Of a stretch of DNA of 12,517 nt, positions 1 through 12,517 are shown one piece after another. Under the pieces are notes generated by a model, which did not search any database, had not been told where the DNA came from, and saw nothing but the letters and a program-made list of their open reading frames with translations. The DNA comes from a virus (taxonomy: Duplodnaviria > Heunggongvirae > Uroviricota > Caudoviricetes): positions 1-12,517 of IMG/VR virus record IMGVR_UViG_2531839668_000004. One strand, 5' to 3'. The position numbers were made by a program, and so were the translations under genes. Within the stretch, counting starts at the first letter, position 1. Each line of letters starts with the position of its first letter.

Positions 1-297
1 AGGAAAAATCCGTATTGCCGGAGATGATGGGCTGCCTGCGTGGGCAGATATTCCTCACCCACGCATGAAGAACTTATTGAAATTACTGAATCAGAAAGAC
101 AGCTACTAATTAACCAGGCCAACGAATACATGAACAGTAAGCAATGGCCCGGTAAAGCCGCTATTGGTCGTCTGAAAGATGATGAACTGGCGCAATATAA
201 TTTGTGGCTGGATTATCTGGACGCACTGGAGCTGGTCGATACTTCCGGTGCGCCAGATATTGAATGGCCTACGCCTCCGGCAGTTCAGGCCAGATGA
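1..297 (+). pseudogene. Second tail fibre assembly (Tfa) gene copy, convergent with tfa; 5' part lies beyond the window and the reading frame appears shifted near 60-75
   Basis: The 40..297 ORF (85 aa) ends ...LWLDYLDALELVDTSGAPDIEWPTPP, the same C-terminal motif as the minus-strand Tfa (...DTSTAPDVIWPELP). Its frame has a stop at 25-27, but the adjacent frame is open from the window edge (..GLPAWADIPHP..) and would join it across a single-base shift. 3' ends of the two tfa copies overlap at 269-297. Confidence 0.5.
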
Positions 298-871
298 CAT
301 CCGGCGCGGTGCTGGTATCTGTTGCCGTCACCGCGTCAATGTAATCCAGCACAGCGTTAAGGCGGGTTGTTTCTGCCTGCGTCAGTTTACGTCCGGCCTG
401 CAATTTCAGCTGAATCAGACTGATGGAGGCCATTGCAGTATCAATCAGCGACTGGCGCTGTGCTTCTGCTGCATCTACTGCTGCGCCGTGCTGTGCCTCG
501 GTATCCGTCACCCATTTCTCACCATCCCATTTATCGTATGGCGTTAACGGGGCGATAGTGGTTGTATTATCAGGGTAATCACCCGGAGCTGTGATTTCTT
601 TTGATTCCCCTGTTTCGGTGCTAAAAACGATTTCACCGCGATGGTCTGGCATATATTCCCATGATTTTAAATCTGCTGAACGGCAGATAGTATAACCAGC
701 CTTATATGTACCAGGAGCATCTAAACAGGAATACGCCGGAATACCGACACCCACAACAAGATATTCGGTTGATGTGGAAAGATATTCCTTCGTCTCAGCA
801 TCAAAATTATAAACGGTAATGTTTCCTGCCTTTGTAGTAATGAGTTCGCTATTTAATACGGCTTTATTCAT
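269..871 (-). CDS. tfa: Tail fibre assembly protein (P2 gpG / Tfa family)
   Basis: 200-aa ORF directly downstream of the tail fibre gene; start overlaps H stop (ATGA). C-terminus ...RLNAVLDYIDAVTATDTSTAPDVIWPELPEA matches the conserved Tfa C-terminal motif of enterobacterial phages. Confidence 0.9.
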   Translation of the reverse strand: MNKAVLNSELITTKAGNITVYNFDAETKEYLSTSTEYLVVGVGIPAYSCLDAPGTYKAGYTICRSADLKSWEYMPDHRGEIVFSTETGESKEITAPGDYPDNTTTIAPLTPYDKWDGEKWVTDTEAQHGAAVDAAEAQRQSLIDTAMASISLIQLKLQAGRKLTQAETTRLNAVLDYIDAVTATDTSTAPDVIWPELPEA

Positions 872-2355
872 CAGGCTGCCCTCACGATATAGTTAAATGC
901 GACGTTGCGCGGCCGGGTTTCAGAACCACCAACCGATACCGTAGAAATTGAATTTGCCGTAATAAGTTCCCCGAAAGCATCAGCCGTAACTACGAACCGA
1001 CCTCCCGTTGGATCAAAACTTTTTAGCGCATAGTACTGGTCAAACCAGTGCCCATGAGAAGCAAATAAATGGTCTTGAGATGTCAACAAACCACGAGAGG
1101 AATCCACCCCGCGCCCATCATCCCATCCACGAATAAATTCACCGCGTAAATCAGGCAATTTATTTGTCGGGTAAGCCTTTGCCAGTTCCGGGTATTCTTC
1201 AGCAGAAAAAGCCGCACCATTGCATTTCAACCAGCCTGTTGGCGGAGTGGCTGAAGGCCACGGAACAGGCACCCCAACAGGTAATGCTGAGCCTTCTCCC
1301 AAACCAAGGTATGTGAGAAGACCAGCTACATCCTTTCCACTCAAATTAGTCAGCGTATTGTCCAGCGGTTGTTTACCTGCCAGCGCATTAAGCATTGTCG
1401 TGGCAAAGTTCGGGTCATTCCCCAGAGCTGCCGCCAGTTCGTTCAGTGTATCCAGTGCCGCAGGTGCAGAACCCACCATTGCCGCAATCGCCGATTTCAC
1501 AAATGCCGTGGTGGCAATCTGTGTATTGTTGACCGACTGTGCCGCCGTGGGGGCTGTTGGCGTTCCGGTGAGTGCCGGACTCGACAACGGTGCTTTTAGT
1601 GCCAGCGCATTGTTAATGGTGGTACTGAAATTCGGATCATTGTTAATGGCTGCGGCTATTTCTTTCAGCGTGTCCAGCGTGGCTGGCGCACCATTAATAA
1701 GGGCCGTCAGTGCCGCCTGTACAAACGCAGTGGTCGCAACCTGCGTGGTATTATTCCCCGCCGCTGGCGTTGGCGCTTTGGGGGTTCCGGTAAATGTCGG
1801 GCTGGCTTTTGGCGCGTACTGTGAATGCGGGTCCGGTGCGGCAAGATGTTTTGCCATCTGATCATCCGCGTACACCTTCAGCTCCAGTGCCTTGTCATCC
1901 ACATACTTGCGAGTTGCCAGCACTACAGCAGGGTCGATTTTCAGGGTGATATTGTCCGTGCTGCTGGTAATCAGCACCATGCGCACGGTCTGAGTGCGCC
2001 CGCTACCTTCAGCCAGTTGCGGCTTATAGCTTTCCGGGCAGTTGCCCACGGCAATCAATGCCCCGGACTCATCAAACAAGCCCACTTCACGTATCCACCA
2101 ACCGCCCTCGTTTTCAGGGATCACCTGTTCGGCAATAATCTGGCTGCTGTTCTGCGGGTCGATATAAAGCATATTCAGCGCAGCCCGGCGTTTCTCATTT
2201 ACCAGTGCCGTCTGCTTTGCGTCCGGCGTTGGCAATACTCCACCGCCATCGCCCACCGCCATATGGGTAATTTTTAGCGGCACACCGAGCGCGGCGGCGC
2301 TGGCAAGTTTCGCCGCGCCAATATCCGTCAGCAGGGTATAAAATTTTGTGCTCAT
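871..2355 (-). CDS. H: Tail fibre protein (P2 gpH-like): conserved N-terminal domain, duplicated Ala-rich shaft repeat, variable receptor-binding C-terminus
   Basis: 494-aa ORF. N-terminus MSTKFYTLLTDIGAAKLA...MAVGDGGG...ESYKPQLAEGSGR resembles the P2 H N-terminal domain. Internal ..ATTAFV..DTLNELAAALGNDPNFATT..NALAGKQP repeat and C-terminal ...ETRPRNVAFNYIVRAA are typical of side tail fibres. Start overlaps I stop. Confidence 0.9.
   Translation of the reverse strand: MSTKFYTLLTDIGAAKLASAAALGVPLKITHMAVGDGGGVLPTPDAKQTALVNEKRRAALNMLYIDPQNSSQIIAEQVIPENEGGWWIREVGLFDESGALIAVGNCPESYKPQLAEGSGRTQTVRMVLITSSTDNITLKIDPAVVLATRKYVDDKALELKVYADDQMAKHLAAPDPHSQYAPKASPTFTGTPKAPTPAAGNNTTQVATTAFVQAALTALINGAPATLDTLKEIAAAINNDPNFSTTINNALALKAPLSSPALTGTPTAPTAAQSVNNTQIATTAFVKSAIAAMVGSAPAALDTLNELAAALGNDPNFATTMLNALAGKQPLDNTLTNLSGKDVAGLLTYLGLGEGSALPVGVPVPWPSATPPTGWLKCNGAAFSAEEYPELAKAYPTNKLPDLRGEFIRGWDDGRGVDSSRGLLTSQDHLFASHGHWFDQYYALKSFDPTGGRFVVTADAFGELITANSISTVSVGGSETRPRNVAFNYIVRAA
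1294..1319. other. Candidate serine-invertase crossover site (hix/gix/cix-like 26-bp imperfect palindrome) inside gene H
   Basis: TTCTCCCAAACCAAGGTATGTGAGAA has the AAACC-AAGGT core and TTCT...AGAA flanks of Hin/Gin/Cin/Pin sites, about 19 of 26 positions matching hixL as I recall it. It encodes LTYLGLGEG at the boundary between the conserved and variable parts of H. Confidence 0.5.
1385..1790. repeat. Diverged tandem duplication (two units of about 200 bp) inside H encoding the repeated Ala/Thr-rich shaft motif
   Basis: Protein repeats TQVATTAFVQAALTALINGAPATLDTLKEIAAAINNDPNFSTTINNALALKAP and TQIATTAFVKSAIAAMVGSAPAALDTLNELAAALGNDPNFATTMLNALAGKQP; the corresponding DNA segments are visibly similar. 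Boundaries approximate. Confidence 0.5.
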
Positions 2356-2957
2356 GGATTCACTCTCATTGTGTCAATAACATGGACCGCCCCGCCTTCA
2401 TGCGCGGTGCCACCGGAAATAATCGTTTCGTTGATATACGGATAGATCGTGATTTCTTCGCCAAGATAGCTGGCGGCTCCCACCCAATGCGGGCCGCTGG
2501 TCTGCAGATTGATGGACATGCCGATCATGTGGCGGCTACATGGTTTGGCATCGCTTATCAGTCGCTCAAGTTCCAGATAGGTATCTTCAGTGATGCCCTG
2601 GTCCTGCACGCCGATATCCAGGCGAAACGTGCCCGGTGTTTCTCCGGTCTGCCACCACTCAATAATGCGGATCAGGAATCCGAACGGCTCCACCACCCGC
2701 CGCACGGCACTGGTGGTCCCTTTATGCTGATGAATATAAAAAGCATCCTTCACCACCTGGCGCTTGACGCTTTCTGTCCAGCCCTCGTCCCAGCGATCCA
2801 CAGAGAACGCCCAGGCGAGATAAGGCAGGAAACTGACCGGACAGGTTGCCGGATTCCACAAGTCACGAAGCGGCACCTGCAGATCAGAAATCCCGCTGCA
2901 GGTTTGCGCCAGTCGGCGCTCCAGTGGTGTTGAACCCGGTGGCAGCAGACTATTCAT
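2352..2957 (-). CDS. I: Baseplate assembly / tail protein I (P2 gpI-like)
   Basis: 201-aa ORF between J and H in P2 order; overlaps J stop and H start, indicating translational coupling. Assignment is by position and size. Confidence 0.85.
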   Translation of the reverse strand: MNSLLPPGSTPLERRLAQTCSGISDLQVPLRDLWNPATCPVSFLPYLAWAFSVDRWDEGWTESVKRQVVKDAFYIHQHKGTTSAVRRVVEPFGFLIRIIEWWQTGETPGTFRLDIGVQDQGITEDTYLELERLISDAKPCSRHMIGMSINLQTSGPHWVGAASYLGEEITIYPYINETIISGGTAHEGGAVHVIDTMRVNP

Positions 2958-3858
2958 CCGTTCCTCCGTTGGTTACGCTCCACTGCGTACATGATGCCGC
3001 CTGTGTTTTGTTCAGGACCACATCCGCCAGAGGAGAAGCCAGCTCCACACGCTGCACCCCCTCAACATGCAGGGCGGCAAAGATGGCGCTACGGCGAATA
3101 TCCCGACCAAGACGCGTCTGACTGGCGATGTACTTCTGCAGGCTGGCTTTTGCCGCTGCCATTACCGGCTCTGCTTCCGGTCCAGGATAGAGAAAAATGG
3201 TGGCTTCCACGCGATACGGGATGATTTCTGCGCTGCGAACCGTCAGACGGTCAGCCACCGGGCGGACGTTCTCACTGTTCAGAGCTTTTTCCACCACGTC
3301 CAGCAGGTCTTTTTCTGCAGTTCCATCGCCTTCGCGGCTAAGGACAGTCAGCACCACCTCTGCAGGTGCCGGGCTGGTTGCACTGGCATCCGCCACCCGA
3401 CCGTCGGCGCTTCGGGCATGAAATTCATAAGCTGCAGTTGGCCCCGCAACAGAAAGCCCTTCAAAGGCTGCAGGCACACGCAGGCGCAACGCTTCATCGC
3501 TTTCCATCACAGCTGCAACCGGCGGCACAGCATCATTATCAGCAGGCGTCACCGTCAGGCGTGTCACGTTGTAGTTGGCAGCGAGCTGGTCAAGATCGCC
3601 GCCCATCGCGTAAGCCACCATCACCGCCTGCGCGGCTTCGTTAATGCGCTGGCGCAGAAGCAACTCACGGTAAGCGTTCTCCTGCAACAATTTAGTGGCG
3701 GGTTCAGATTCCAGTTCCAGCGTGCGGATCACTGCTTCCTGCTCATCTTTCGGATGAAGCGCCACAAATTCTGCCTTGCGTTCGGCAAGCAGCGTCTCAA
3801 AGTCCGGCACATCCACAATCTGCGGTGCAGGCAACTGTGAAAGGTCAATCACTGCCAT
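2950..3858 (-). CDS. J: Baseplate assembly protein J (P2 gpJ-like)
   Basis: ORF track gives 2950..3897, but the likely start is the internal ATG (MAVIDLSQLPAPQ...) at 3858, preceded by an AGGAG ribosome-binding site and giving 302 aa, the size I recall for P2 gpJ. The longer version would overlap W. Confidence 0.85.
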   Translation of the reverse strand: MAVIDLSQLPAPQIVDVPDFETLLAERKAEFVALHPKDEQEAVIRTLELESEPATKLLQENAYRELLLRQRINEAAQAVMVAYAMGGDLDQLAANYNVTRLTVTPADNDAVPPVAAVMESDEALRLRVPAAFEGLSVAGPTAAYEFHARSADGRVADASATSPAPAEVVLTVLSREGDGTAEKDLLDVVEKALNSENVRPVADRLTVRSAEIIPYRVEATIFLYPGPEAEPVMAAAKASLQKYIASQTRLGRDIRRSAIFAALHVEGVQRVELASPLADVVLNKTQAASCTQWSVTNGGTDE

Positions 3859-4204
3859 TCTCTGCTCCTGTTGATACGGAAAGGGACACAGGCACACCGT
3901 TATTCCGCCGCCCGGTCAGCTCCACCACCATTGAACCGTCAAAATTGCTGTTGATGGTGATGGAATCCAGCGTCAACCGTGGCTCCCAGCGACTCAGCGC
4001 CACATACACTGCCGACATGACCTGCAGGCGTAATGCCGGATTTTGTGGCTGATCTATCAGTGCCGACAGCAGGGAACCATATTCCCGGCGGGCAATACGG
4101 CTACCCTGCGGTGTCAGCAGAATGTCCCGCACCGACTGGCGCAGATGATCAATATCAGTAATGACTTTGCCGCTGGTATTGTTCATCCCGCTATAAAGCG
4201 TCAT
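3845..4204 (-). CDS. W: Baseplate wedge protein W (GPW/gp25 family)
   Basis: 119-aa ORF between V and J; start overlaps V stop (ATGA). Size and position match P2 gpW. Confidence 0.85.
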   Translation of the reverse strand: MTLYSGMNNTSGKVITDIDHLRQSVRDILLTPQGSRIARREYGSLLSALIDQPQNPALRLQVMSAVYVALSRWEPRLTLDSITINSNFDGSMVVELTGRRNNGVPVSLSVSTGAENGSD

Positions 4205-4779
4205 ACCGGGCCTCCGGTTGTATCGCCGCCTTTCAGGACGCCAGTATGCTGATGCGCATCAACCACGATCCCGTTAGAACTCATCGCTCCGCCGCCCTGG
4301 ATAACGCCACCATTGATCACCACTTCGCTGTTAATACGCGTGCGGTCAGCCTCCAGTACAAACTCACTGGTTTTCATGGTGATGTTGTCAGCAGCCTCAA
4401 TGACCATTGATTTGATGCCCCTGACATACCAGCGCCCGGTGGCGGGTTCGTATTCAAACCAGCCACCGTCAGGATGTTCTGTCACGCAGGCGTCCGCCGA
4501 CGTCGACGGTGGTGCGAACTGATTCGAATAGACAGCGGGCAGCGCAAAGGCGGTTTCCAGATTGCCGCCCAGACTCAGCAGCACCACCTGCTCACCTTCC
4601 GATGGTCGCCACCATGTACGGGCATTCCCGGCACGCAGCGTCAGCCAGCTGATCCAGTTGGTTTCAAGCTCGCCCGTTTTCACCCGGCAAAGCCAGTTTT
4701 CCCGGTCCACTTCGGTGACTACCCCTGTGCGGATCAGGTTGGTGATAAGGCGCATGATTTCGGTTAATTGTGCGTTCAT
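4201..4779 (-). CDS. V: Baseplate central spike / assembly protein V (P2 gpV-like)
   Basis: 192-aa ORF; N-terminus MNAQLTEIMRLITNLIRTGVVTEVD resembles the P2 gpV N-terminus as I recall it. First gene after a 68-bp intergenic gap. Confidence 0.85.
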   Translation of the reverse strand: MNAQLTEIMRLITNLIRTGVVTEVDRENWLCRVKTGELETNWISWLTLRAGNARTWWRPSEGEQVVLLSLGGNLETAFALPAVYSNQFAPPSTSADACVTEHPDGGWFEYEPATGRWYVRGIKSMVIEAADNITMKTSEFVLEADRTRINSEVVINGGVIQGGGAMSSNGIVVDAHQHTGVLKGGDTTGGPV

Positions 4780-4825
4780 AGGGAAAGGTTGCCATCAGAG
4801 GAAGAAAGGCGGCAGTGCTGCAACT

Positions 4826-4843
4826 TGTATCAGTGCTGATACA
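4826..4843 (-). promoter_or_regulatory. TGT-N12-ACA dyad in the S-V intergenic region; candidate Ogr/Delta-type late-activator site of promoter P_V
   Basis: TGTATCAGTGCTGATACA: perfect 9-bp arms of dyad symmetry, 5 nt after the S stop and about 55 bp before the V start codon. P2-like late promoters carry a TGT-N12-ACA element, and P2 has a late promoter in front of V. No clear -10 hexamer seen, and the spacing to the ATG leaves little leader. Confidence 0.4.
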
Positions 4844-4847
4844 AAGA

Positions 4848-5294
4848 TCACCCCGCCAGCCATTGCAGAATCATGTCGCGGGTCATTGCCTCAACATCAT
4901 CATTTACACCCAGAAGGCGACGCTCTGCGTAACGCACCTCCGGTCCCTTACGACTGACGCGATCTCGCAGGCCGTAATGGTGAACGCGGGCAATGCGCTG
5001 CACCTTGCCTTTAAACTGCACGCTGGCAGAGTCGGTGCTGGCGGCAGTTTTCAGGTATTTTGTGGTGCGCAGCTTTGCAAACATCTGACGTTTGATACGG
5101 CCTTTTTTACTGCGTGCTGTTACCCGTCGCGGTTCATAGCTGCTGCCGTCAGGGTTGCGCTGCATCCTGATATTCTGCTGCTGTGTCCGGCGAAGTTCCT
5201 GCGCCAGCTGGCGCATCATGCGGCTTCTCGAGGCTGGTTCCAGATTCGCCAGCAAGGCACTCAGCCAGTCGTCCACCTTCTGCAGTTCAGCCAC
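4848..5294 (-). CDS. S: Tail completion protein S (P2 gpS-like virion morphogenesis protein)
   Basis: 148-aa ORF downstream of R with an 8-bp overlap; size and position match P2 gpS. Confidence 0.85.
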   Translation of the reverse strand: MAELQKVDDWLSALLANLEPASRSRMMRQLAQELRRTQQQNIRMQRNPDGSSYEPRRVTARSKKGRIKRQMFAKLRTTKYLKTAASTDSASVQFKGKVQRIARVHHYGLRDRVSRKGPEVRYAERRLLGVNDDVEAMTRDMILQWLAG

Positions 5295-5739
5295 GTTTCA
5301 CCGTCCACATTTCTTCAGGTGCATCAGGTTCCGCTATAGCTTCAACGCTCGACACACTGCCGTCAGTGCTGACCAGCACACGTTCCGTCAGTTGCAGGTT
5401 CAGGCTGATATCACAGACATCGTTGCGCAGAATATCCACCTCAAAGGTGAATAGCTTTTCCCGTAACGCCGGGTTATTGATGGCATCGGGCTGGTTATCC
5501 CTCAGCCACAGCAAAACCGGGGCCATCAGCAGATTCTGGTCGCCGCTGAAATCTTCAATCACCGCGTTCAGGGTGTAACGGTACTCCCACGACATGGAGC
5601 TGGCCCCCGTGGCAACCAGCGAACCGTTATCCACAAACAGATGCAGTTTGTCCGGGTTATTGCGGACATAAGGCACCGCTTTATTGAGGGCGTGGCGCAG
5701 GGATTGTGGTTTGTTCACTGTTTCGCTCCTGACACGCAA
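5287..5739 (-). CDS. R: Tail completion protein R (P2 gpR-like)
   Basis: 150-aa ORF; size and position between the lysis genes and S match P2 gpR. Confidence 0.85.
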   Translation of the reverse strand: MRVRSETVNKPQSLRHALNKAVPYVRNNPDKLHLFVDNGSLVATGASSMSWEYRYTLNAVIEDFSGDQNLLMAPVLLWLRDNQPDAINNPALREKLFTFEVDILRNDVCDISLNLQLTERVLVSTDGSVSSVEAIAEPDAPEEMWTVKRG

Positions 5740-5971
5740 TAATCATGTCCACTTTGTCTGCACAGACCGCCCAGGCGGCCTCCGTTTCATCCAGCAACGC
5801 GTTCAGATCACCGTTAGTGCGCGGCGCTGCCTGATCCAGCCGACACGGCGTCACTCGCGGACAACCACTGACGGTAAGCTGCACCTCCGGTGAGCGTCGG
5901 ACGTTCCCGCAGCCGGATAATGTCAGCAGGCAAAGGAGTATCAGCCCAGCGGCGTAAATCCTCGTTCTCAC
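5681..5971 (-). CDS. lysC: Outer-membrane spanin lipoprotein (P2 LysC / Rz1-like), starting inside lysB in another frame
   Basis: 96 aa; N-terminus MRTRIYAAGLILLCLLTLSGC is a signal peptide with a lipobox (LSGC), followed by a Pro-rich region. The ORF starts within lysB and runs past its stop into the 5' end of R. Confidence 0.75.
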   Translation of the reverse strand: MRTRIYAAGLILLCLLTLSGCGNVRRSPEVQLTVSGCPRVTPCRLDQAAPRTNGDLNALLDETEAAWAVCADKVDMIIACQERNSEQTTIPAPRPQ

Positions 5972-6242
5972 GTTTCAGTTCCTCAATCCGATGTTGTCGT
6001 TGTCTCAGCAGCGCGCTGGTCTGTTCTGCTTCGGCATAGAGCCGCGCCTGCTCCCGGTTATTGGTTTCAGTCAGAATGGACAGGCTGATAAGCTGGCTGT
6101 TGCTCTTTGCCAGTGCCTGGCTTTTGCTCCGCAGCTCGTCTGCCTGCGTGCTGATGGTCTGGCTGGCATCAGCCAGCCGCCACGTCTGCCAGCCCAGCGA
6201 CGCCAGTAATAACGCCAGCACAACCAGCAGCAACCGGTTCAT
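5814..6242 (-). CDS. lysB: Inner-membrane spanin (P2 LysB / Rz-like)
   Basis: 142 aa; N-terminal transmembrane segment MNRLLLVVLALLLASLGWQ followed by a charged, coiled-coil-like region (EELKRENEDLRRW). Start overlaps lysA stop. Confidence 0.8.
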   Translation of the reverse strand: MNRLLLVVLALLLASLGWQTWRLADASQTISTQADELRSKSQALAKSNSQLISLSILTETNNREQARLYAEAEQTSALLRQRQHRIEELKRENEDLRRWADTPLPADIIRLRERPTLTGGAAYRQWLSASDAVSAGSGSAAH

Positions 6243-6616
6243 GCTGCTACCTGTTGCGCCATCTGGTTACGAGTGATCCAGAAGGCAATAACGGTCAGCA
6301 GATAAAAGACCAGGGTAATGGCCCACCCCGTCCAGGCGAGACTTACGACAATCAGCAATCGCATAACCCAGCTGATAAATACGTTTTCTTTTCGGGTAAT
6401 GCTCTTCAGCAAAGATGCCCTCAACTCCTGCCAGAGCGGGCCGTTCTTAATTAACGCAACCAGTGCTACCGGAATTGCCCCCCATGTCAGCAGGCAGGCT
6501 ACCCAGACACCGGACGCTGCCAGTACCGGAAAAATCCCCTGCGGATACACCATTGCTGCGATTAACAGCGCCATCCATAACATCAGAAACAGTCCGCTGA
6601 TTAATTTCTTTTTCAT
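6239..6616 (-). CDS. lysA: LysA-like membrane protein of the lysis cassette
   Basis: ORF track gives 6239..6688; the likely start is the ATG at 6616 (MKKKLISGLFLMLWMALLIAAMV...), one nt after the K stop with a GGGAG ribosome-binding site. Several hydrophobic helices; sits between K and lysB as in P2. Confidence 0.75.
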   Translation of the reverse strand: MKKKLISGLFLMLWMALLIAAMVYPQGIFPVLAASGVWVACLLTWGAIPVALVALIKNGPLWQELRASLLKSITRKENVFISWVMRLLIVVSLAWTGWAITLVFYLLTVIAFWITRNQMAQQVAA

Positions 6617-6617
6617 T

Positions 6618-7130
6618 TCAGTTTGCTCCCTGTAAACACCAGGCCATCTCCCGCGCACGGCGGTTATCCAGCCCCTGATTAAACACACCTTTTACATAAA
6701 CCCAGCGCGGCAACTGTCGGCACGCATCCGCCCAGCGCCGCTGATTGAGCAATTTCACCAGCGTGGAGCTGCAGGCATTGCCCGTCCCCACGTTGAAGGC
6801 AAACGACACCGTAGCGTCATACACCTTCTGTGGTGGCTGTTGCTTCACACACCTTTCCAGTGCCCGCTCCACACGCAGCACGTTGGAGATCAGCCCTTCT
6901 GCTGCCTGTCGTTCCGTGATTGTTTTGCCGGGAATGACGCCCGATGTATTACCAATGCCGTCGGTCCAGACACCCGCGCTGCACTGATACGGCTGCAGAC
7001 GACAGCCTTCGTAATCGGCAATCAGTTTCAGCCCCTCCACGGAGGTGTGAAGCTGCTGAAAACCCGGCAGCGTGGCAGCAATAGCCAGCACAGCCCCGAC
7101 AAGGCAGCGTTTAACGATTGATGGATTCAT
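6618..7130 (-). CDS. K: Endolysin (T4-lysozyme-like muramidase) with an N-terminal signal-arrest-release (SAR) type anchor; P1 Lyz-like
   Basis: 170 aa; weakly hydrophobic Gly/Ala-rich N-terminus MNPSIVKRCLVGAVLAIAATLPGF, then EGCRLQPYQCSAGVWTDGIGNT, i.e. an E-x8-C-x5-T catalytic motif closely resembling the P1 Lyz sequence as I recall it. Confidence 0.85.
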   Translation of the reverse strand: MNPSIVKRCLVGAVLAIAATLPGFQQLHTSVEGLKLIADYEGCRLQPYQCSAGVWTDGIGNTSGVIPGKTITERQAAEGLISNVLRVERALERCVKQQPPQKVYDATVSFAFNVGTGNACSSTLVKLLNQRRWADACRQLPRWVYVKGVFNQGLDNRRAREMAWCLQGAN

Positions 7131-7326
7131 AGTCCTCCCGCGAGATCTGCCCGTCGCGCAGAAGCTGGTAGGCTTTGTGTTTGTAGTACCAGTTGATAGC
7201 CAGCATCAGCACACCGATCATCAGGCCGCCCAGCGTTGAGGCATCCTTGATGGACAAATCGCCCAGCCAGGCCAGCACGACGGCGATGCAATACGTGATA
7301 AAGGCGCTGATTCGCTCAAGCGTCAT
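7111..7326 (-). CDS. Y: Holin (small two-transmembrane holin, pinholin-sized), P2 gpY position
   Basis: 71 aa with two hydrophobic helices (ISAFITYCIAVVLAWLG and LGGLMIGVLMLAINWYY) and a charged C-terminus; immediately upstream of, and overlapping, the endolysin gene. Confidence 0.8.
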   Translation of the reverse strand: MTLERISAFITYCIAVVLAWLGDLSIKDASTLGGLMIGVLMLAINWYYKHKAYQLLRDGQISREDYESINR

Positions 7327-7329
7327 AAT

Positions 7330-7533
7330 TCAGTCCCATAGCTGGACGGTCTGCACGGTGGTGGTTGTCGGAATGTCCGGCAGCTCCACCTGCAGCCCGT
7401 GAGGTAAAAAGGGGCCGTATTCGGCAAGCCCCGGATTTGCCTTCAGTACCTGCTCCGTGACACCCTGCGTGCGCCCGTAATGACGCCAGCAAAGCGCGTC
7501 CACCGTGTCATACTGATGCGCACGCACTTTCAT
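7330..7533 (-). CDS. X: Tail protein X (P2 gpX-like, LysM-like)
   Basis: 67 aa, the size of P2 gpX; MKVRAHQYDTVDALCWRHYGRTQGV...ANPGLAEYGPFLPHGLQVELPD resembles gpX as I recall it. Confidence 0.85.
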   Translation of the reverse strand: MKVRAHQYDTVDALCWRHYGRTQGVTEQVLKANPGLAEYGPFLPHGLQVELPDIPTTTTVQTVQLWD

Positions 7534-7997
7534 CAGATAAGCTCCACTGTGCAGTGCGGCGCATCCTGCACCCGACTGATGGCCCAGCGGGCGTCACGCC
7601 ACAAATCACCGCTGGATTCCGCCAGTTCCTCGCCCCGCTTCACACCGGATGCCGTGGCGTCATAGTCCTGGTAACGTTCGTTGAGCATGGCGCGTGCCCA
7701 GCAGTAAACCGCGTTGAAATAGTGCTGAATGCGCTCGCTTTTGCCGTCCAGTTGTTCCGCCGGGACTTCTGCCAGCGAGGCATACCCCAGCATCTGCTGG
7801 CGTCTGCGAAACTCATACAGCTCTGCGTTGACCTCCGAAATTGCCGACAGCGCAACCTGCTTTAAACGCGGCTGCGTCACCGTGCCGTCAGTGCGCATCA
7901 CGCTGCGAAACTCCGACGGGTCCACATCAGGCCAGAACGGCGTGTTTCTGATGATTTCCGCCTGTTCCGGTGCCTGTTCTGGCGCAACAAACTTCAT
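7533..7997 (-). CDS. L: Head completion / stabilisation protein L (P2 gpL-like)
   Basis: ORF track gives 7533..8060 from a GTG; the ATG at 7997 (MKFVAPEQ...) has an AGGAGA ribosome-binding site about 7 nt upstream and is the more likely start. Precedes X as in P2. Confidence 0.8.
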   Translation of the reverse strand: MKFVAPEQAPEQAEIIRNTPFWPDVDPSEFRSVMRTDGTVTQPRLKQVALSAISEVNAELYEFRRRQQMLGYASLAEVPAEQLDGKSERIQHYFNAVYCWARAMLNERYQDYDATASGVKRGEELAESSGDLWRDARWAISRVQDAPHCTVELI

Positions 7998-8190
7998 GCT
8001 GCTTTCTCCTGAAATAGAGGGCGGTGGACGGGATTTTGATGTGGCTGTGCCTTTCGCCACCCCGTGCCGCCCGTGCGCGGGGGCACGTTCTGTCAGCGGC
8101 TGTCATTGCGCAGTCTGCGCTCCAGCTGCTGTTTGTCTTTTTTCACGCCACAGCGGGGATCGAGCTGTAACGCATGGTTGAGATGGTTAA

Positions 8191-9375
8191 GGGCAGAAGG
8201 CACAGGCTCACGTCTTTAAGCAGTACATCATCGACTTCGCCAAAGAAGTGGAGGTGGAGCTGAAAGGCGATCCGATGGTGCTTCCTAACGGGGCCACGCT
8301 TTACTTCCTCGGCACCAATGCCCGCACGGCCCAGAGTTATCACGGCAACCTGTATCTGGATGAATATTTCTGGATACCGAAATTCCAGGAGCTGCGCAAA
8401 GTGGCTTCCGGTATGGCTATTCACAAGAAATGGCGACAAACCTATTTTTCCACGCCATCCAGCCTGACACACAGTGCTTATCCGTTCTGGTCCGGTGCGC
8501 TGTTCAACCGTGGGCGCAACAAAGCCGATAAGGTGGACATCGACCTGTCCCACAGCAATCTGGCTCCCGGCCTGCTGTGTGCAGACGGGCAGTACCGCCA
8601 GATAGTCACTGTGGAAGATGCGGTGCGCGGCGGCTGTAACCTGTTCGACCTCGACCAGTTGCGCATGGAGTACAGCCCGGACGAATACCAGAACCTGCTG
8701 ATGTGTGAGTTCGTGGACGATCTCGCGTCCGTATTCCCGCTCAGCGAGCTGCAGGCGTGCATGGTGGACAGCTGGGAAGTCTGGACCGACTTTCATGCAC
8801 TGGCCCTGCGCCCGTTTGGCTGGCGCGAAGTATGGATCGGTTATGACCCGGCGAAAGGTACGCAGAACGGCGACAGTGCCGGATGCGTGGTGGTGGCTCC
8901 GCCAGCCGTGCCGGGCGGTAAGTTCCGCATTCTTGAGCGTCACCAGTGGCGCGGGATGGACTTCCGCGCCCAGGCGGACGCCATCAAAAAACTGACCGAA
9001 CAGTACAACGTGACCTATATCGGCATCGACTCGACAGGTGTAGGTCACGGGGTTTATGAGAACGTGAAAGCGTTCTTTCCTGCCGTCCGGGAGTTTGTTT
9101 ACAACCCCAACGTTAAAAACGCCCTGGTACTCAAGGCCTACGACATTATCAGTCACCGTCGTCTGGAGTTTGACGCCGGACACACCGACATCGCGCAGTC
9201 ATTTATGGCAATCCGTCGCGCCACCACCGCCAGCGGCAACCGCCCGACCTATGAAGCCAGCCGCAGCGAAGAAGCCAGCCACGCCGATCTGGCCTGGGCA
9301 ACGATGCATGCACTGTTTAACGAACCGCTGCAGGGTGAATCCGCCAATACCAGCAATATTGTGGAGATTTTTTGA
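8191..9375 (+). pseudogene. P: Terminase large (ATPase) subunit P, N-terminally truncated: only about the C-terminal two-thirds is present
   Basis: The frame opens right after a TAA at 8188-8190 and runs to 9375 (about 394 codons, versus about 590 aa that I recall for P2 gpP). No N-terminal Walker A region is present; LYLDEYF is Walker-B-like. Stop overlaps the Q start (ATGA). Divergent from L, with nothing in between. Confidence 0.7.
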
Positions 9376-10418
9376 TGGGAAAGAGTAAGAAAAACCGCGC
9401 TGCGGCGACGAATCAGCTCAAGCATAAAAACCAGACTTCAGCCGAAGCATTCAGCTTCGGCGATCCCGTTCCGGTTCTGGACCGCCGTGAACTGCTGGAC
9501 TATGTGGAATGCGTACAGACAGATCGCTGGTATGAGCCGCCAGTGAGTTTTGACGGACTGGCGCGTACCTTTCGCGCCGCCGTGCACCACAGCTCACCGA
9601 TTGCAGTGAAATGCAACATTCTGACCAGCACCTACATCCCTCACCCGCTGCTCAGCCAGCAGGCTTTTTCACGTTTTGTGCAGGACTATCTGGTTTTTGG
9701 TAACGCCTACCTGGAGAAACGCACGAACCGGTTCGGTGAAGTTATCGCCCTTGAGCCTGCTCTGGCAAAATACACCCGACGCGGATTAGACCTGGATACC
9801 TACTGGTTTGTGCAATACGGTATGACAACCCAGCCGTATCAGTTCACGAAAGGCAGCATTTTTCATCTGATGGAACCGGATATTAATCAGGAGATCTACG
9901 GCCTGCCCGGCTATCTTTCTGCCATCCCATCCGCTTTGCTCAACGAGTCCGCCACGCTGTTCCGCCGGAAGTATTACATTAACGGTAGTCATGCAGGCTT
10001 CATCATGTACATGACCGATGCCGCGCAGAACCAGGAGGATGTGAACAACCTCCGCAATGCGATGAAAAGCGCCAAAGGTCCAGGCAACTTCCGCAACCTG
10101 TTTATGTACTCGCCTAACGGCAAAAAGGACGGGCTTCAGATCATCCCGTTGTCAGAAGTTGCGGCGAAGGATGAGTTTCTGAATATCAAGAACGTGAGCC
10201 GTGATGACATGATGGCTGCGCACCGCGTGCCGCCGCAAATGATGGGGATTATGCCTAATAATGTTGGAGGGTTTGGGGATGTGGAAAAAGCCGCGAAGGT
10301 TTTTGTCAGAAATGAGTTGGTTCCTTTGCAGAAAAGACTAGTTGAGCTAAACACCTGGATAAATCAAAATATTGTGTCATTTAATGACTACATCCTTGAC
10401 CAAGATAAGGGCATTTAA
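9372..10418 (+). CDS. Q: Portal protein (P2 gpQ-like)
   Basis: 348 aa, close to the size of P2 gpQ; coupled to P by an ATGA overlap. The last roughly 35 codons are encoded by AT-rich DNA. Confidence 0.85.
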   Translation: MMGKSKKNRAAATNQLKHKNQTSAEAFSFGDPVPVLDRRELLDYVECVQTDRWYEPPVSFDGLARTFRAAVHHSSPIAVKCNILTSTYIPHPLLSQQAFSRFVQDYLVFGNAYLEKRTNRFGEVIALEPALAKYTRRGLDLDTYWFVQYGMTTQPYQFTKGSIFHLMEPDINQEIYGLPGYLSAIPSALLNESATLFRRKYYINGSHAGFIMYMTDAAQNQEDVNNLRNAMKSAKGPGNFRNLFMYSPNGKKDGLQIIPLSEVAAKDEFLNIKNVSRDDMMAAHRVPPQMMGIMPNNVGGFGDVEKAAKVFVRNELVPLQKRLVELNTWINQNIVSFNDYILDQDKGI

Positions 10419-10429
10419 TGCCCTTTTTT
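10407..10429 (+). terminator. Intrinsic terminator hairpin shared by the convergent Q and membrane-protein genes
   Basis: AAGGGCAT-TTA-ATGCCCTT stem-loop followed by a T-run; the Q stop codon lies in the loop, and the converging minus-strand gene ends at 10415. Confidence 0.6.
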
Positions 10430-11206
10430 ATCCTCATAAGCAACGTCATCGTATAATTTTAAGGCACCTAAATCATGTAATTGCTGCTTGAATTCCTTAC
10501 TTAAACTAAACCCCTGAAGGAGAGAATATTTTTCAATAAATTTCTTGGCAGGCTTTCCTACCGATGAAAAACCATTTAATAGCATCGCGCCAGATTCTAT
10601 AGAAGATATTTGTGCTCTAACTAATTTCGCATACTTGGTTTTTTCTTTCTCAGTCAAATAGTTAGAGTCGTTGATATGTTTAAAAATATGGTAAATATTC
10701 CTGAAATAATGTCCCACATTCGCAAAATTGTCACCTTCCAGATAAACCATATTAACTGAAAGCTCTAACCTTTCATCCAAAGGAAGTGAATCATCCACAA
10801 TATTAAGTAGGTTAAACTTCACTTCGGTAATGTATAATGAAAGAGCCTCTCGTCCTACATACACTTTTCCATCTGAATACGTTGTTTTAATTTCTGATAA
10901 GTTATCTTTATGAAATCTTAGTAACTCAAATAACACAGACTCGAATGACTGAATAGATGACTGCCTGGATGTAGAATATAGTGTGAAACAAACAAGCATG
11001 ATAGAGATAAAGGCCAGAGCAGGATTCAGTACACCACCAATATAATCGCCAAACTGTCCCCATTTCTCTACGGAATCACTCCATGAATACATTCCAAATT
11101 TACAAACATAGCTAACAAACACTATCAGCATTAAAATAAAAGCCAAAAACAACAGTGAATAAATAATGGCATAACGCTTAATATTTCGAAGAATGGCACC
11201 ACACAT
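10415..11206 (-). CDS. Membrane-anchored protein of unknown function (two N-terminal transmembrane helices plus a roughly 190-aa soluble domain); cargo gene
   Basis: ORF track gives 10415..11272 (285 aa), but that start overlaps the ASCH gene by 55 bp; the internal ATG at 11206 (MCGAILRNIKRYAIIYSLLFLAFILMLIVFVSYV...) avoids this. Second hydrophobic helix LNPALAFISIMLVCFTLY. AT-rich codon usage unlike the phage module. Confidence 0.6.
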   Translation of the reverse strand: MCGAILRNIKRYAIIYSLLFLAFILMLIVFVSYVCKFGMYSWSDSVEKWGQFGDYIGGVLNPALAFISIMLVCFTLYSTSRQSSIQSFESVLFELLRFHKDNLSEIKTTYSDGKVYVGREALSLYITEVKFNLLNIVDDSLPLDERLELSVNMVYLEGDNFANVGHYFRNIYHIFKHINDSNYLTEKEKTKYAKLVRAQISSIESGAMLLNGFSSVGKPAKKFIEKYSLLQGFSLSKEFKQQLHDLGALKLYDDVAYEDKKGH

Positions 11207-11217
11207 CTCACAATACC

Positions 11218-11595
11218 TTATATATAATCCATATTTAAATCTATTGTATAAATACCTTTCCTCGCCACACAAGGAATAGATTTTTTTAAAGTTCTAACAT
11301 TTTTAATTTCCCACACATAATAACCTGGAGACCAAGGCTTATTAAGAGTTGTTTCTTGGTTTTGTTTTAAGTAATCCTCATATGACCAATTTCTAACTGA
11401 AACAAAATCGACAATAGCCATAGCCACCCCATGATCTATATCGCTTTGATTTTTAAGATATTTATCATTCTGAACAAGAATGACGTTTTTTAATGGTATC
11501 GTTTCAGGATACCACGACCGTATTTCGATAGATTTAGAACCATTTATAATATTTTCTACCGCTGGAGTCAAAATCGATATAGCTTGAAACTTCAT
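11218..11595 (-). CDS. ASCH-domain (PUA-like beta-barrel) protein
   Basis: 125 aa; N-terminal ISILTPAVENIINGSKSIEIRSW contains the ASCH signature G-x-K-x-x-E-x-R. GAGGA ribosome-binding site before the start; AT-rich; upstream of and co-oriented with the membrane protein gene. Confidence 0.7.
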   Translation of the reverse strand: MKFQAISILTPAVENIINGSKSIEIRSWYPETIPLKNVILVQNDKYLKNQSDIDHGVAMAIVDFVSVRNWSYEDYLKQNQETTLNKPWSPGYYVWEIKNVRTLKKSIPCVARKGIYTIDLNMDYI

Positions 11596-11660
11596 GCTCT
11601 ATCCTCTACTATGCTAAGGCTATAACATTCTAACATAAATAAATAAACGGAGGTAATACT

Positions 11661-12206
11661 ATGTTAATTTTCATAGCAGGTGTTCATGGTGTAGGCAAAG
11701 GTTACTTGTGTTCATTTGCAAAAGATGATTTCGGGGTAACTCATGTAAGCGCAAGCGAACTTATAAAAAATAATTCTAATATTAAATTTGATAACAGTAA
11801 GTTAACGGCCACACCTGATAAAAACCAATCAATATTACTTACGGCACTTAATGCATTAAAGTCAAAGGTATCCAATATTTTATTGGATGGTCATTTTACC
11901 TTAATAAATAAAAATGGAGATATTGAAGTTCTCAAGCAAGAAGTATTTGAGGAAATGGGGCTAGATGGAGTAATTTTAGTTGAGGAGTCTCCCGATACAA
12001 TTAGAGAACGAATAATGAAACGAGATGGGAGTGATATTACTTATGATTTAAATAAGCTGATGGAAGCTGAAAGAGAAAACGCAAAATATGTTACAAATAA
12101 AATCAATGTACCATTAATTATCTTAGAATCCCCAACAACAAACGATTTATCTATTGCTCTAGAAAAACTGGGCATGGTTAAGAAACATGCCCAGATAACA
12201 TTATAA
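11661..12206 (+). CDS. Small P-loop NTPase, nucleoside/nucleotide-kinase-like
   Basis: 181 aa; Walker A MLIFIAGVHGVGKGY at the extreme N-terminus and a Walker-B-like hhhhD (ILLDGHF), the layout of small adenylate/shikimate-type kinases. GGAGG ribosome-binding site 7 nt upstream. Divergent from the ASCH gene across a 65-bp AT-rich gap. Confidence 0.65.
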   Translation: MLIFIAGVHGVGKGYLCSFAKDDFGVTHVSASELIKNNSNIKFDNSKLTATPDKNQSILLTALNALKSKVSNILLDGHFTLINKNGDIEVLKQEVFEEMGLDGVILVEESPDTIRERIMKRDGSDITYDLNKLMEAERENAKYVTNKINVPLIILESPTTNDLSIALEKLGMVKKHAQITL

Positions 12207-12517
12207 ATAACGATAAGACTGTGGGGCGACGCCGCCGGGAATCAACTCATTTAAGTCGACAGGGAATTTATATCTTTTAGGGCTTTTGATGGAAATAGCA
12301 AAAGCCTTTTCTCTTTGGTGGAAATAATCTTTAAAAAAAGAATGTGTAATTCCTGCATGAGCTTTCGTTTTATCCCACAATTCTGAAGGGGATAGAGCAA
12401 GAATATCTCCTACTTTAAATTCACCTATTACTTTGCCAACCGGCATCGTTGCGTAAATAACTATCGTATCAACATTTTTATTTCTAAAAATATTTTTCCG
12501 AAACTCATATTTTTTTA
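12201..12517 (-). CDS. Partial ORF (C-terminal part; N-terminus beyond the right window edge), unknown function
   Basis: ORF track shows 12201..12446 (81 aa), but the frame appears open upstream to the window edge (..DTIVIYATMPVGKVIGEFKVGDILALSP...). Convergent with the kinase gene, overlapping it by 6 bp. AT-rich. Confidence 0.5.
   Translation of the reverse strand, partial: KKYEFRKNIFRNKNVDTIVIYATMPVGKVIGEFKVGDILALSPSELWDKTKAHAGITHSFFKDYFHQREKAFAISIKSPKRYKFPVDLNELIPGGVAPQSYRYL

Follow-up and report, generated by a model that had tools for sequence, protein, structure and literature searches.

A nucleotide-kinase-fold gene in a P2-like prophage of Escherichia coli as an accessory of the GNAT-EVE/ASCH (PDC-M11) cassette

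Near one end of a 12,517-nucleotide stretch of viral DNA (positions 1 to 12,517 of IMG/VR record IMGVR_UViG_2531839668_000004, referred to here in its entirety as 'the window') lies a gene for a 181-residue protein with a phosphate-binding loop (P-loop), transcribed divergently from a gene for a small ASCH protein (here termed ASCH#1). An earlier reading of the window made without database searches (the sequence-only reading) drew attention to the Walker A motif of the protein and to its position beside ASCH#1, and proposed either that the pair might indicate nucleotide or nucleic-acid modification chemistry, or equally that the gene might be a separate single-gene module. Subsequent comparison across bacterial and prophage genomes establishes that the gene is a frequent (not an invariable) accessory of a cassette encoding GNAT-EVE and ASCH proteins, sometimes headed by a PIN-like domain and listed among candidate defence systems as PDC-M11, and that it is essentially never found apart from that cassette. 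That the protein, referred to below as the kinase, is a component of the cassette is in our judgement nearly certain.

The linkage was examined in both directions. A scan with the family alignment, using one genome per species, yielded 28 kinase loci, and a scan of IMG/VR added 65 further loci, for a total of 93 loci that represent 75 kinase clusters at 90% identity; neighbouring genes were mapped using domain-limited hidden Markov models built from the E. coli island that carries the gene. The loci are derived from Proteobacteria, Cyanobacteria, Saccharibacteria, Verrucomicrobiota, Desulfobulbus and IMG/VR prophages. In 74 of the 75 clusters, GNAT-EVE (either fused or split) and ASCH genes directly adjoin the kinase gene, and the single unlinked cluster ends at a contig edge. 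These neighbours match the PADLOC models PDC-M11A (the GNAT-EVE protein) and PDC-M11B (the ASCH protein) with E-values ranging from 1e-49 to 1e-143. The co-occurrence of kinase and ASCH genes, which the sequence-only reading had named as a check, therefore holds across several bacterial phyla, and the notion of a separate single-gene module is refuted, since the same cassette adjoins nearly every kinase. At least seven gene orders are found around the kinase, with the clusters distributed as follows:

GNAT-EVE, then ASCH, then kinase: 18 kinase clusters
Kinase, then GNAT-EVE, then ASCH: 13 kinase clusters
PIN-GNAT-EVE, then ASCH, then kinase: 12 kinase clusters
Enterobacterial convergent arrangement: 18 kinase clusters
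Other arrangements: the remainder of the 75 kinase clusters

Where the genes form same-strand operons, the stop codon of the ASCH gene overlaps the start codon of the kinase gene, and in two loci an M11B-type ASCH and the kinase are fused within one open reading frame (ORF), of 327 residues in one instance (locus L013, 454-1434) and 332 in the other (locus L022, 5572-6567). Both are metagenome assemblies (a Thiobacillaceae metagenome-assembled genome and one from rumen) in which an assembly frameshift is possible, but the two cases are independent. For the reverse test, metagenome loci were anchored on the ASCH partner, and 36 complete cassettes with adequate flanking sequence were recovered; the kinase is present in 23 of these (10/12 long and 13/24 short forms), a proportion of 64% that is biased because sampling was confined to the 80 loci whose ASCH is closest to the E. 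coli type.

The nature of the protein was addressed by means of its predicted structure and its family alignment. The ORF is a genuine gene and not a chance ORF; its homologues form 38 protein clusters with identities extending down to 33%. The Walker A motif noted in the sequence-only reading is present as G7-V-H-G-V-G12-K13-G14, and the description of a small protein resembling nucleoside monophosphate (NMP) kinases is upheld by both the fold model and the profile matches. The AlphaFold model (pLDDT 90.8) adopts an adenylate-kinase fold, and its best Foldseek matches are to archaeal-type adenylate kinases (1e-10, TM score 0.67-0.75, probability 1.0, 17-22% identity). Sequence-profile matches correspond to the UMP/CMP kinase 1QF9 and to adenylate kinases (~1e-7), PHROG 761 (annotated 'thymidylate kinase') matches at 3e-19, and a structural search of BFVD returned generic nucleotide kinases, one of which (rank 28) is annotated as a polynucleotide kinase, and no specific phage counterpart. 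Among curated profiles, the protein falls in Pfam AAA_17 (E=8.4e-19, 68.6 bits against a cut-off of 27); the Pfam ADK match lies below its cut-off (2e-5, 25.0 bits against 26.8), and the NCBIfam Adk and Cmk models reach at most 33 bits against cut-offs of 102-334 (the best being 32.9 against 155). The profile placement that had been called for thus arrives at AAA_17 and at no standard housekeeping kinase, with the curated cut-offs for the latter missed.

Alignment of 86 distinct homologues revealed that K13, K47, N55, H78, R121 and E137 are invariant (86/86), and that H9, D76, Q56 and R117 are nearly so (R117 in 82/86), corresponding to a family signature of GxHGxGK[STG], SASxLI, K47, NQ, LDGHFxL, RxxxRD and E137. 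Because the P-loop lysine, the aspartate after strand 3 (within LDGHF) and the LID residues Arg117 and Arg121 are all kept, the phosphotransferase catalytic core is intact. A conserved surface on the acceptor side is formed by SASxLI (S32), K47, N55-Q56 and H78; the acceptor site is strongly conserved but non-canonical, and we infer that the protein is an active enzyme with a specific acceptor.

Several other class assignments were tried and rejected. A housekeeping NMP kinase was set aside on account of the curated models that remain below cut-off and of the mobile context of the gene, which lies in prophage cargo DNA (33% GC) carried by only 8 of the 5,426 complete E. coli genomes. The label of AAA+ ATPase, used by RefSeq and by Bell et al., was rejected since the top structural matches are all monomeric-type nucleotide kinases, and Pfam AAA (PF00004) gives no significant match to the window kinase. 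A Zeta/PezT toxin kinase was likewise dismissed: there is no Zeta_toxin match in Pfam, AAA_33 reaches only E=0.14, and the structural similarity to Zeta/PezT is that of P-loop kinases in general. As to known defence-system kinases, PADLOC gave only a weak match to VakA (E=0.006), which is not used as evidence. For polynucleotide kinases, considered below as an alternative, neither Pfam nor NCBIfam yields a match to the PNK/Clp1 families.

On balance, we favour the reading that the protein is an NMP-kinase-fold accessory of the PDC-M11 cassette, working with ASCH on a nucleotide-type ligand and thereby tuning or supplying the GNAT-EVE effector. The steps of such a mechanism would be: (i) that an active kinase acts in complex with an ASCH protein, a direct association that is predicted from the two fusion ORFs; (ii) that its acceptor is probably a nucleotide-type ligand bound by the PUA-like pockets of ASCH or EVE, for which a modified pyrimidine nucleotide, perhaps of the N4-acetylcytidine kind, is the most attractive candidate, a nucleic-acid 5' end being less likely; and (iii) that the action of the kinase would tune or feed the GNAT-EVE effector. 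The kinase is not itself taken to be the effector, because about a third of cassettes are without it. The hint of nucleotide or nucleic-acid modification chemistry in the sequence-only reading accords with this linkage of the kinase to PUA-like (ASCH and EVE) proteins; besides an acetyltransferase, the cassette has two or three such domains of the kind that binds modified bases. Stated more narrowly, as a nucleotide kinase operating with ASCH, the mechanism is offered tentatively, and any specific substrate with less assurance still. A bolder version, which we consider improbable, would cast the cassette as a nucleotide-acetylation immune pathway: the kinase and GNAT-EVE would make or process an N4-acetylated cytidine nucleotide (which might poison growing chains as an analogue or, if derived from degraded nucleic acid, signal danger), the ASCH proteins would deacetylate or read N4-acetylcytidine (ac4C), thereby resetting the signal or protecting the host, and putAbiC would be the abortive-infection executioner of the enterobacterial version. 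If true, this would amount to nucleotide-based antiviral chemistry of a new class, in which the kinase would be analogous to CMPK2 beside viperin.

A number of observations weigh against the favoured reading. Added to the bias in the reverse count is the fact that about a third of the cassettes carry no kinase, which is thus dispensable for their core activity. The NMP-phosphate-binding arginine of the DGFPR motif, which we take to be R88 of E. coli Adk, is absent from all 86 homologues (position 80 being C, V, T, A or S), and the other NMP-site arginine is represented by K or R in only 68 of the 86 (79%); given the missing arginine, a classical NMP acceptor is not assured, and room is left for a non-nucleotide acceptor. 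The GNAT domain, when searched by profile against PDB sequences, retrieves GNATs of the NAA50/PaiA type and not TmcA or NAT10, so that the link to ac4C depends on the ASCH side only. PDC-M11 is itself only a guilt-by-embedding candidate, and Bell et al. 2020 (PMC7641849) describe no component with biochemical or phage-challenge data.

Of the alternative explanations, a regulatory NTPase, in the form of an ATP-hydrolysing switch or chaperone that gates a GNAT-EVE toxin or its expression, is given a modest but appreciable chance. The presence of the gene in only ~64% of cassettes, the missing canonical NMP-phosphate arginine, and a candidate promoter and orientation of its own in the enterobacterial block are all compatible with such a role, which Bell et al. 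2020 (PMC7641849) also proposed; however, the fold is that of an NMP kinase and not of an AAA+ or GTPase switch, and the LID residues R117 and R121, together with the invariant patch (S32, K47, N55, Q56 and H78), fit an enzyme with a defined second substrate. An activity as a polynucleotide 5'-kinase, phosphorylating 5'-OH ends of RNA or DNA that are produced by a PIN or ASCH ribonuclease, and thereby marking or healing cleaved tRNA or mRNA, is quite unlikely. It would draw on the close homology of M11B to ZmASCH, a single-stranded RNA cleaver that removes 5' nucleotides (PMC5615036), on the PIN-like or T5orf172 nuclease-like N-termini of long M11A proteins, and on the existence of polynucleotide kinases among P-loop kinases of similar size (including the BFVD match at rank 28); but every top structural match is to a nucleotide kinase, no PNK/Clp1 family is matched in Pfam or NCBIfam, and the kinase is equally common with the short, nuclease-less GNAT-EVE.

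Two further explanations concern whom the gene serves. The block might benefit the prophage, either in counter-defence or as an addiction (toxin-antitoxin) module, with the kinase, for example, helping GNAT-EVE to act on modified nucleic acids of the host. Short GNAT-EVE forms are indeed carried on prophages, and Bell et al. (PMC7641849) speculate that GNAT-EVE shields phages from host restriction-modification or acts as a toxin-antitoxin system. Against this stand the anti-phage activity of the tested cargo in the hotspot that houses the E. coli island (PMC9122126), the embedding of long forms within defence systems (Payne et al., and Bell et al.), and the attachment of putAbiC, an abortive-infection-type gene, in many copies; the location in that hotspot is circumstantial evidence for an anti-phage role of the cassette, and we regard service to the prophage as unlikely. 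Finally, an independent moron or housekeeping-type kinase (similar to Adk, Cmk or Tmk) that lies beside ASCH by chance would fit the weak resemblance that the protein bears to adenylate, UMP-CMP and thymidylate kinases. All curated kinase models nevertheless fall far below their cut-offs, the gene resides in a low-GC (guanine plus cytosine) mobile island of very restricted distribution in E. coli (8/5,426 complete genomes) and was not found in the deposited phage genomes searched, and its linkage to the cassette persists in 74 of 75 clusters despite shuffled gene orders, by which this explanation is effectively refuted.

Within the window, the kinase gene and the region upstream of it comprise the following features:

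11661-12206, plus strand: kinase ORF, 181 residues, ATG start; the 'AAA_17' accessory gene of the GNAT-EVE/ASCH (PDC-M11) cassette
11649-11653, plus strand: Shine-Dalgarno sequence GGAGG, 7 nucleotides before the kinase ATG, read directly; GAGG kept in most orthologous loci
11596-11660, no strand assigned: divergent gap between ASCH#1 and the kinase, 65 base pairs, 32% GC, taken from the sequence
11584-11612, plus strand: sigma-70-like promoter candidate for the kinase, TTGAAA at 11584-11589, a 17-nucleotide spacer, and TACTAT at 11607-11612

The divergence from the ASCH gene (11218-11595, minus strand) across an AT-rich gap of 65 base pairs is exactly as the sequence-only reading had described. 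Across nine orthologous loci the gap measures 61-66 base pairs and several of its positions are conserved. The promoter candidate overlaps the first codons of ASCH#1 and matches 9 of 12 consensus positions; in an alignment of the nine loci, neither its TTGA nor the TA of its -10 element varies. A scan of the gap region found five promoter-like sites where 7.2 would be expected from shuffled sequence, no leftward site passed that scan, and the promoter and terminator scan as a whole gave nothing above the shuffled-sequence expectation. The suggestion that both divergent promoters lie inside the gap is, from the sequence, plausible. At the other end, the kinase and M11B genes converge with a 3' overlap of 6 base pairs (12201-12206), and no terminator-like structure separates them; the corresponding genes of other Enterobacterales lie 9-35 nucleotides apart.

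The convergent gene is the universally conserved ASCH partner of the kinase, and is only partly contained in the window:

12201-12517, minus strand: PDC-M11B ASCH, 123 residues, with its first 18 codons past the window end (PADLOC)

The sequence-only reading was correct in placing the kinase beside an ASCH gene, but did not connect it to this convergent M11B or to GNAT-EVE. PADLOC assigns PDC-M11B at 3e-25 for the part in the window and at 1.7e-49 for the full protein, and a profile match at 1e-27 to the ZmASCH structures 5GUQ and 5GUS is accompanied by retention of the equivalents of Y47 and S128. The Zymomonas protein binds nucleic acid, cleaves single-stranded RNA in a magnesium-dependent manner and trims 5' nucleotides (PMC5615036). 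According to a 2026 preprint (bioRxiv 10.64898/2026.08.01.741249), the ASCH protein EOLA1 deacetylates free N4-acetylcytidine by means of a catalytic set of Ser, Lys, Glu and Arg residues; both ASCH partners keep this set, as S6, K20, E23 and R25 in M11B and as S7, K21, E24 and R26 in ASCH#1. Beyond the window, in NZ_CM151364 (locus L001), M11B is followed on the same strand by an EVE-like gene (193 residues) and then a GNAT gene (156 residues); the GNAT and EVE-like genes match PDC-M11A at 1e-58 and 6e-69, respectively, and together constitute it.

In its Pfam layout, M11A comprises an N-terminal PIN-like domain, a central GNAT domain and a C-terminal EVE domain, and its short form consists of GNAT-EVE only. 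At four cyanobacterial and alphaproteobacterial loci (L020, L021, L025 and L028) the PIN-like head of the long form is replaced by T5orf172 (GIY-YIG-related; Pfam 8e-6), which suggests that nuclease heads may be interchangeable on a GNAT-EVE scaffold. In two Pseudomonas loci the ASCH partner carries an Xre-type helix-turn-helix (HTH) fused to its N-terminus (L009, 8056-8898, 281 residues; L012, 8083-8910, 275 residues), and there the kinase is convergent with a long M11A.

Two side observations concern the distribution of these partners. Tandem PDC-M11 cassettes, one short and one long, occur with a single kinase at the end (L006, 2113-6540; also L100, L101 and L053). M11B-like ASCH genes (~45-50% identity) also occur at metagenome loci, several from human gut, with no GNAT, EVE or kinase gene within 5 kb (L071-L077, L086, L088, L089 and L103), and the subfamily therefore has other contexts as well.

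The arrangement in the window belongs to an enterobacterial variant of the cassette, in which putAbiC and ASCH#1 are read leftward, the kinase rightward, and M11B, the EVE-like gene (193 residues) and the GNAT gene (156 residues) leftward. It is found in Escherichia, Klebsiella, Enterobacter, Serratia, Erwinia and Providencia. Two of its genes lie between the phage genes of the window and the divergent gap:

11218-11595, minus strand: ASCH#1, 125 residues, a TRIP4/EOLA1-like ASCH (Pfam, structural model and Foldseek)
10415-11206, minus strand: putAbiC membrane protein, 263 residues, downstream of ASCH#1 (Pfam putAbiC 1.2e-18, PADLOC AbiC 1e-5; start at 11206 according to RefSeq)

The GNAT (156-162 residues) and EVE-like (193-198 residues) proteins are encoded here by adjacent separate genes (L001, 11151-12206; L002, L003 and L030-L037), and the split is genuine and not the product of a pseudogene, because the same split point occurs in genera whose proteins are ~45-70% identical. 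No PIN domain is found in this gammaproteobacterial prophage variant. In three Klebsiella loci (L030-L032, 3755-6945) the six-gene block lies in a lambdoid prophage, between a lambda-P-like replication gene and a DinI/antiterminator-Q region; from its presence in both P2-like and lambdoid prophages it follows that the block transfers as a unit between unrelated phage types.

The Pfam ASCH match of ASCH#1 is below cut-off (1.6e-3, 19.6 bits against 21.2). Its structural model (pLDDT 87.8) retrieves, using Foldseek, EOLA1/CXorf40A (6e-5), then the ASCH domain of TRIP4 and then ZmASCH, and G19, K21, E24 and R26 are invariant, such that the GxKxxExR motif is present; on the basis of the model, the protein is assigned to the ASCH beta-barrel fold. 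It shares 21-23% identity with M11B, confined to the N-terminal motif, and the two represent separate ASCH subfamilies. ASCH#1 is found only in the gammaproteobacterial prophage variant (18/75 kinase clusters), and comprises just 16 protein clusters in a large protein database. The link between the kinase and ASCH#1 that the sequence-only reading proposed is therefore real but secondary: the two genes are divergent in every one of the 18 clusters, including 6 that are devoid of putAbiC, but those are 18 of 75, and the universal partners are M11B and GNAT-EVE. ASCH#1 is a lineage-specific second paralogue. The putAbiC gene, separated from ASCH#1 by 11 nucleotides, accompanies 12 kinase clusters and is missing from the 6 others with ASCH#1, in which ASCH#1 and the portal gene are immediate neighbours. 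The block carries putAbiC only optionally; it may be an Abi gene in its own right, or a facultative effector alongside the short GNAT-EVE, which has no nuclease.

The window belongs to a P2-like E. coli prophage that carries the cassette as a low-GC cargo island, and the rest of the window is occupied by phage genes:

269-8060, minus strand: tail, baseplate, lysis and head-completion genes (ORFs and Pfam)
8248-10418, plus strand: large-terminase (truncated) and portal genes (ORFs and Pfam)

From 10415 to the window end the GC content drops to 32-35%, compared with 55-60% in the phage genes. A 2.1 kb portion of the island is present at 99.6% identity or more in 8 of the 5,426 complete E. coli genomes, every copy being chromosomal, and the island has no DNA match in the deposited phage genomes searched. 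A tblastn search of those phage genomes returned for the kinase only a 30%-identical Enterococcus phage fragment, and for ASCH#1 a partial Acinetobacter phage match, both of which are uninformative. In NZ_CM151364 the island is flanked by the portal gene gpQ on one side and by the genes for DinI and the replication endonuclease (gpA) on the other, and the site is thus the cos-proximal gpQ-gpA hotspot of P2-like phages. That hotspot has been described as a reservoir of anti-phage systems (Rousset et al. 2022, PMC9122126), in a report that does not mention ASCH, GNAT or AbiC cargo for the P2 hotspot.

A separate observation concerns the state of the prophage. Relative to that of NZ_CM151364, to which it is otherwise 99.97-100% identical, the window has lost 3.18 kb at junction 8194-8199 (L001, 3612-6793), comprising the 5' part of the small-terminase gene, the major capsid and scaffold genes, and the first ~585 nucleotides of the large-terminase gene. 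As a result of this loss, the window prophage should not make heads or package DNA. The junction is contiguous in none of the 5,426 complete E. coli genomes.

The association of AAA_17 with GNAT-EVE/ASCH had already been described by Bell et al. 2020 (PMC7641849), citing Iyer et al. 2013 (NAR gkt573). That report states that GNAT-EVE forms are common in beta- and gammaproteobacterial prophages and that all of the modules are uncharacterised, and further offers the guess of a toxin-antitoxin-like system in which the role of AAA_17 is 'non-essential, regulatory'. PDC-M11 was subsequently listed through guilt-by-embedding, without the kinase (Payne et al. 2024, bioRxiv 10.1101/2024.01.29.577857), and a literature search found no experimental paper on the GNAT-EVE/ASCH system. 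The (PIN)-GNAT-EVE/ASCH cassette occurs widely, embedded in defence islands as well as in the hotspots of prophages, and comparative genomics singled it out in 2013, 2020 and 2024; the association itself will not surprise specialists. New here are the nature of the protein as a kinase (and not AAA+) with its signature, the two-way linkage counts, the ASCH-kinase fusions and the enterobacterial variant. The system lends itself to a first study of mechanism. The kinase fold, the fusions and the ac4C-deacetylase residues in both ASCH proteins lead to a testable hypothesis of nucleotide-level chemistry around acetylated cytosine, and the copy in the E. coli P2-like prophage, a compact native form in the most favourable experimental host, comprising five or six small genes with GNAT, EVE, ASCH and kinase on separate polypeptides, suits genetic dissection. 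Annotation could also gain if models of the PDC-M11 type included the kinase, and the second ASCH, as accessories.

When compared with the systems described previously, the loci examined here resemble the AAA_17 operons of Iyer et al. and Bell et al. in family and in their GNAT-EVE and ASCH neighbourhood, with the short form in beta- and gammaproteobacterial prophages; and the HTH-ASCH fusions reported from Alphaproteobacteria by Bell et al. recur here in Pseudomonas. Unlike the AAA+ ATPase of that text, the protein described here has an adenylate-kinase-type fold and a conserved acceptor-side signature, and the enterobacterial variant, with its split GNAT and EVE, divergent EOLA1-like ASCH and optional putAbiC, goes unmentioned in the part available. 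PDC-M11 is modelled as a two-gene cassette (FAM_00697>>FAM_00247) with no kinase model, whereas here the kinase accompanies about two-thirds of the sampled cassettes; in E. coli, PDC-M11A is itself two genes.

The protein shares with NMP kinases such as OdinAK (7OWE) and Dictyostelium UmpK (1QF9) a P-loop, the organisation into CORE, NMP-binding and short LID regions, the aspartate after strand 3 and two LID arginines. It differs from them in possessing GxHGxGK in place of GxPGxGK and LDGHF in place of DGFPR, in its own invariant K47, N55 and Q56, and in a mobile-element context instead of a housekeeping locus. On the side of its partners, M11B is a homologue of ZmASCH and ASCH#1 is structurally closest to EOLA1, a likeness drawn from sequence and model. 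Genes for viperins neighbour a CMP/UMP kinase, CMPK2 in animals and nucleotide kinases beside the prokaryotic viperins. Although GNAT-EVE is not homologous to viperin, the two systems would be alike in coupling an NMP-kinase-like gene to a nucleotide-modifying immune enzyme, an analogy that suggests that the kinase of the PDC-M11 cassette may supply its substrate.

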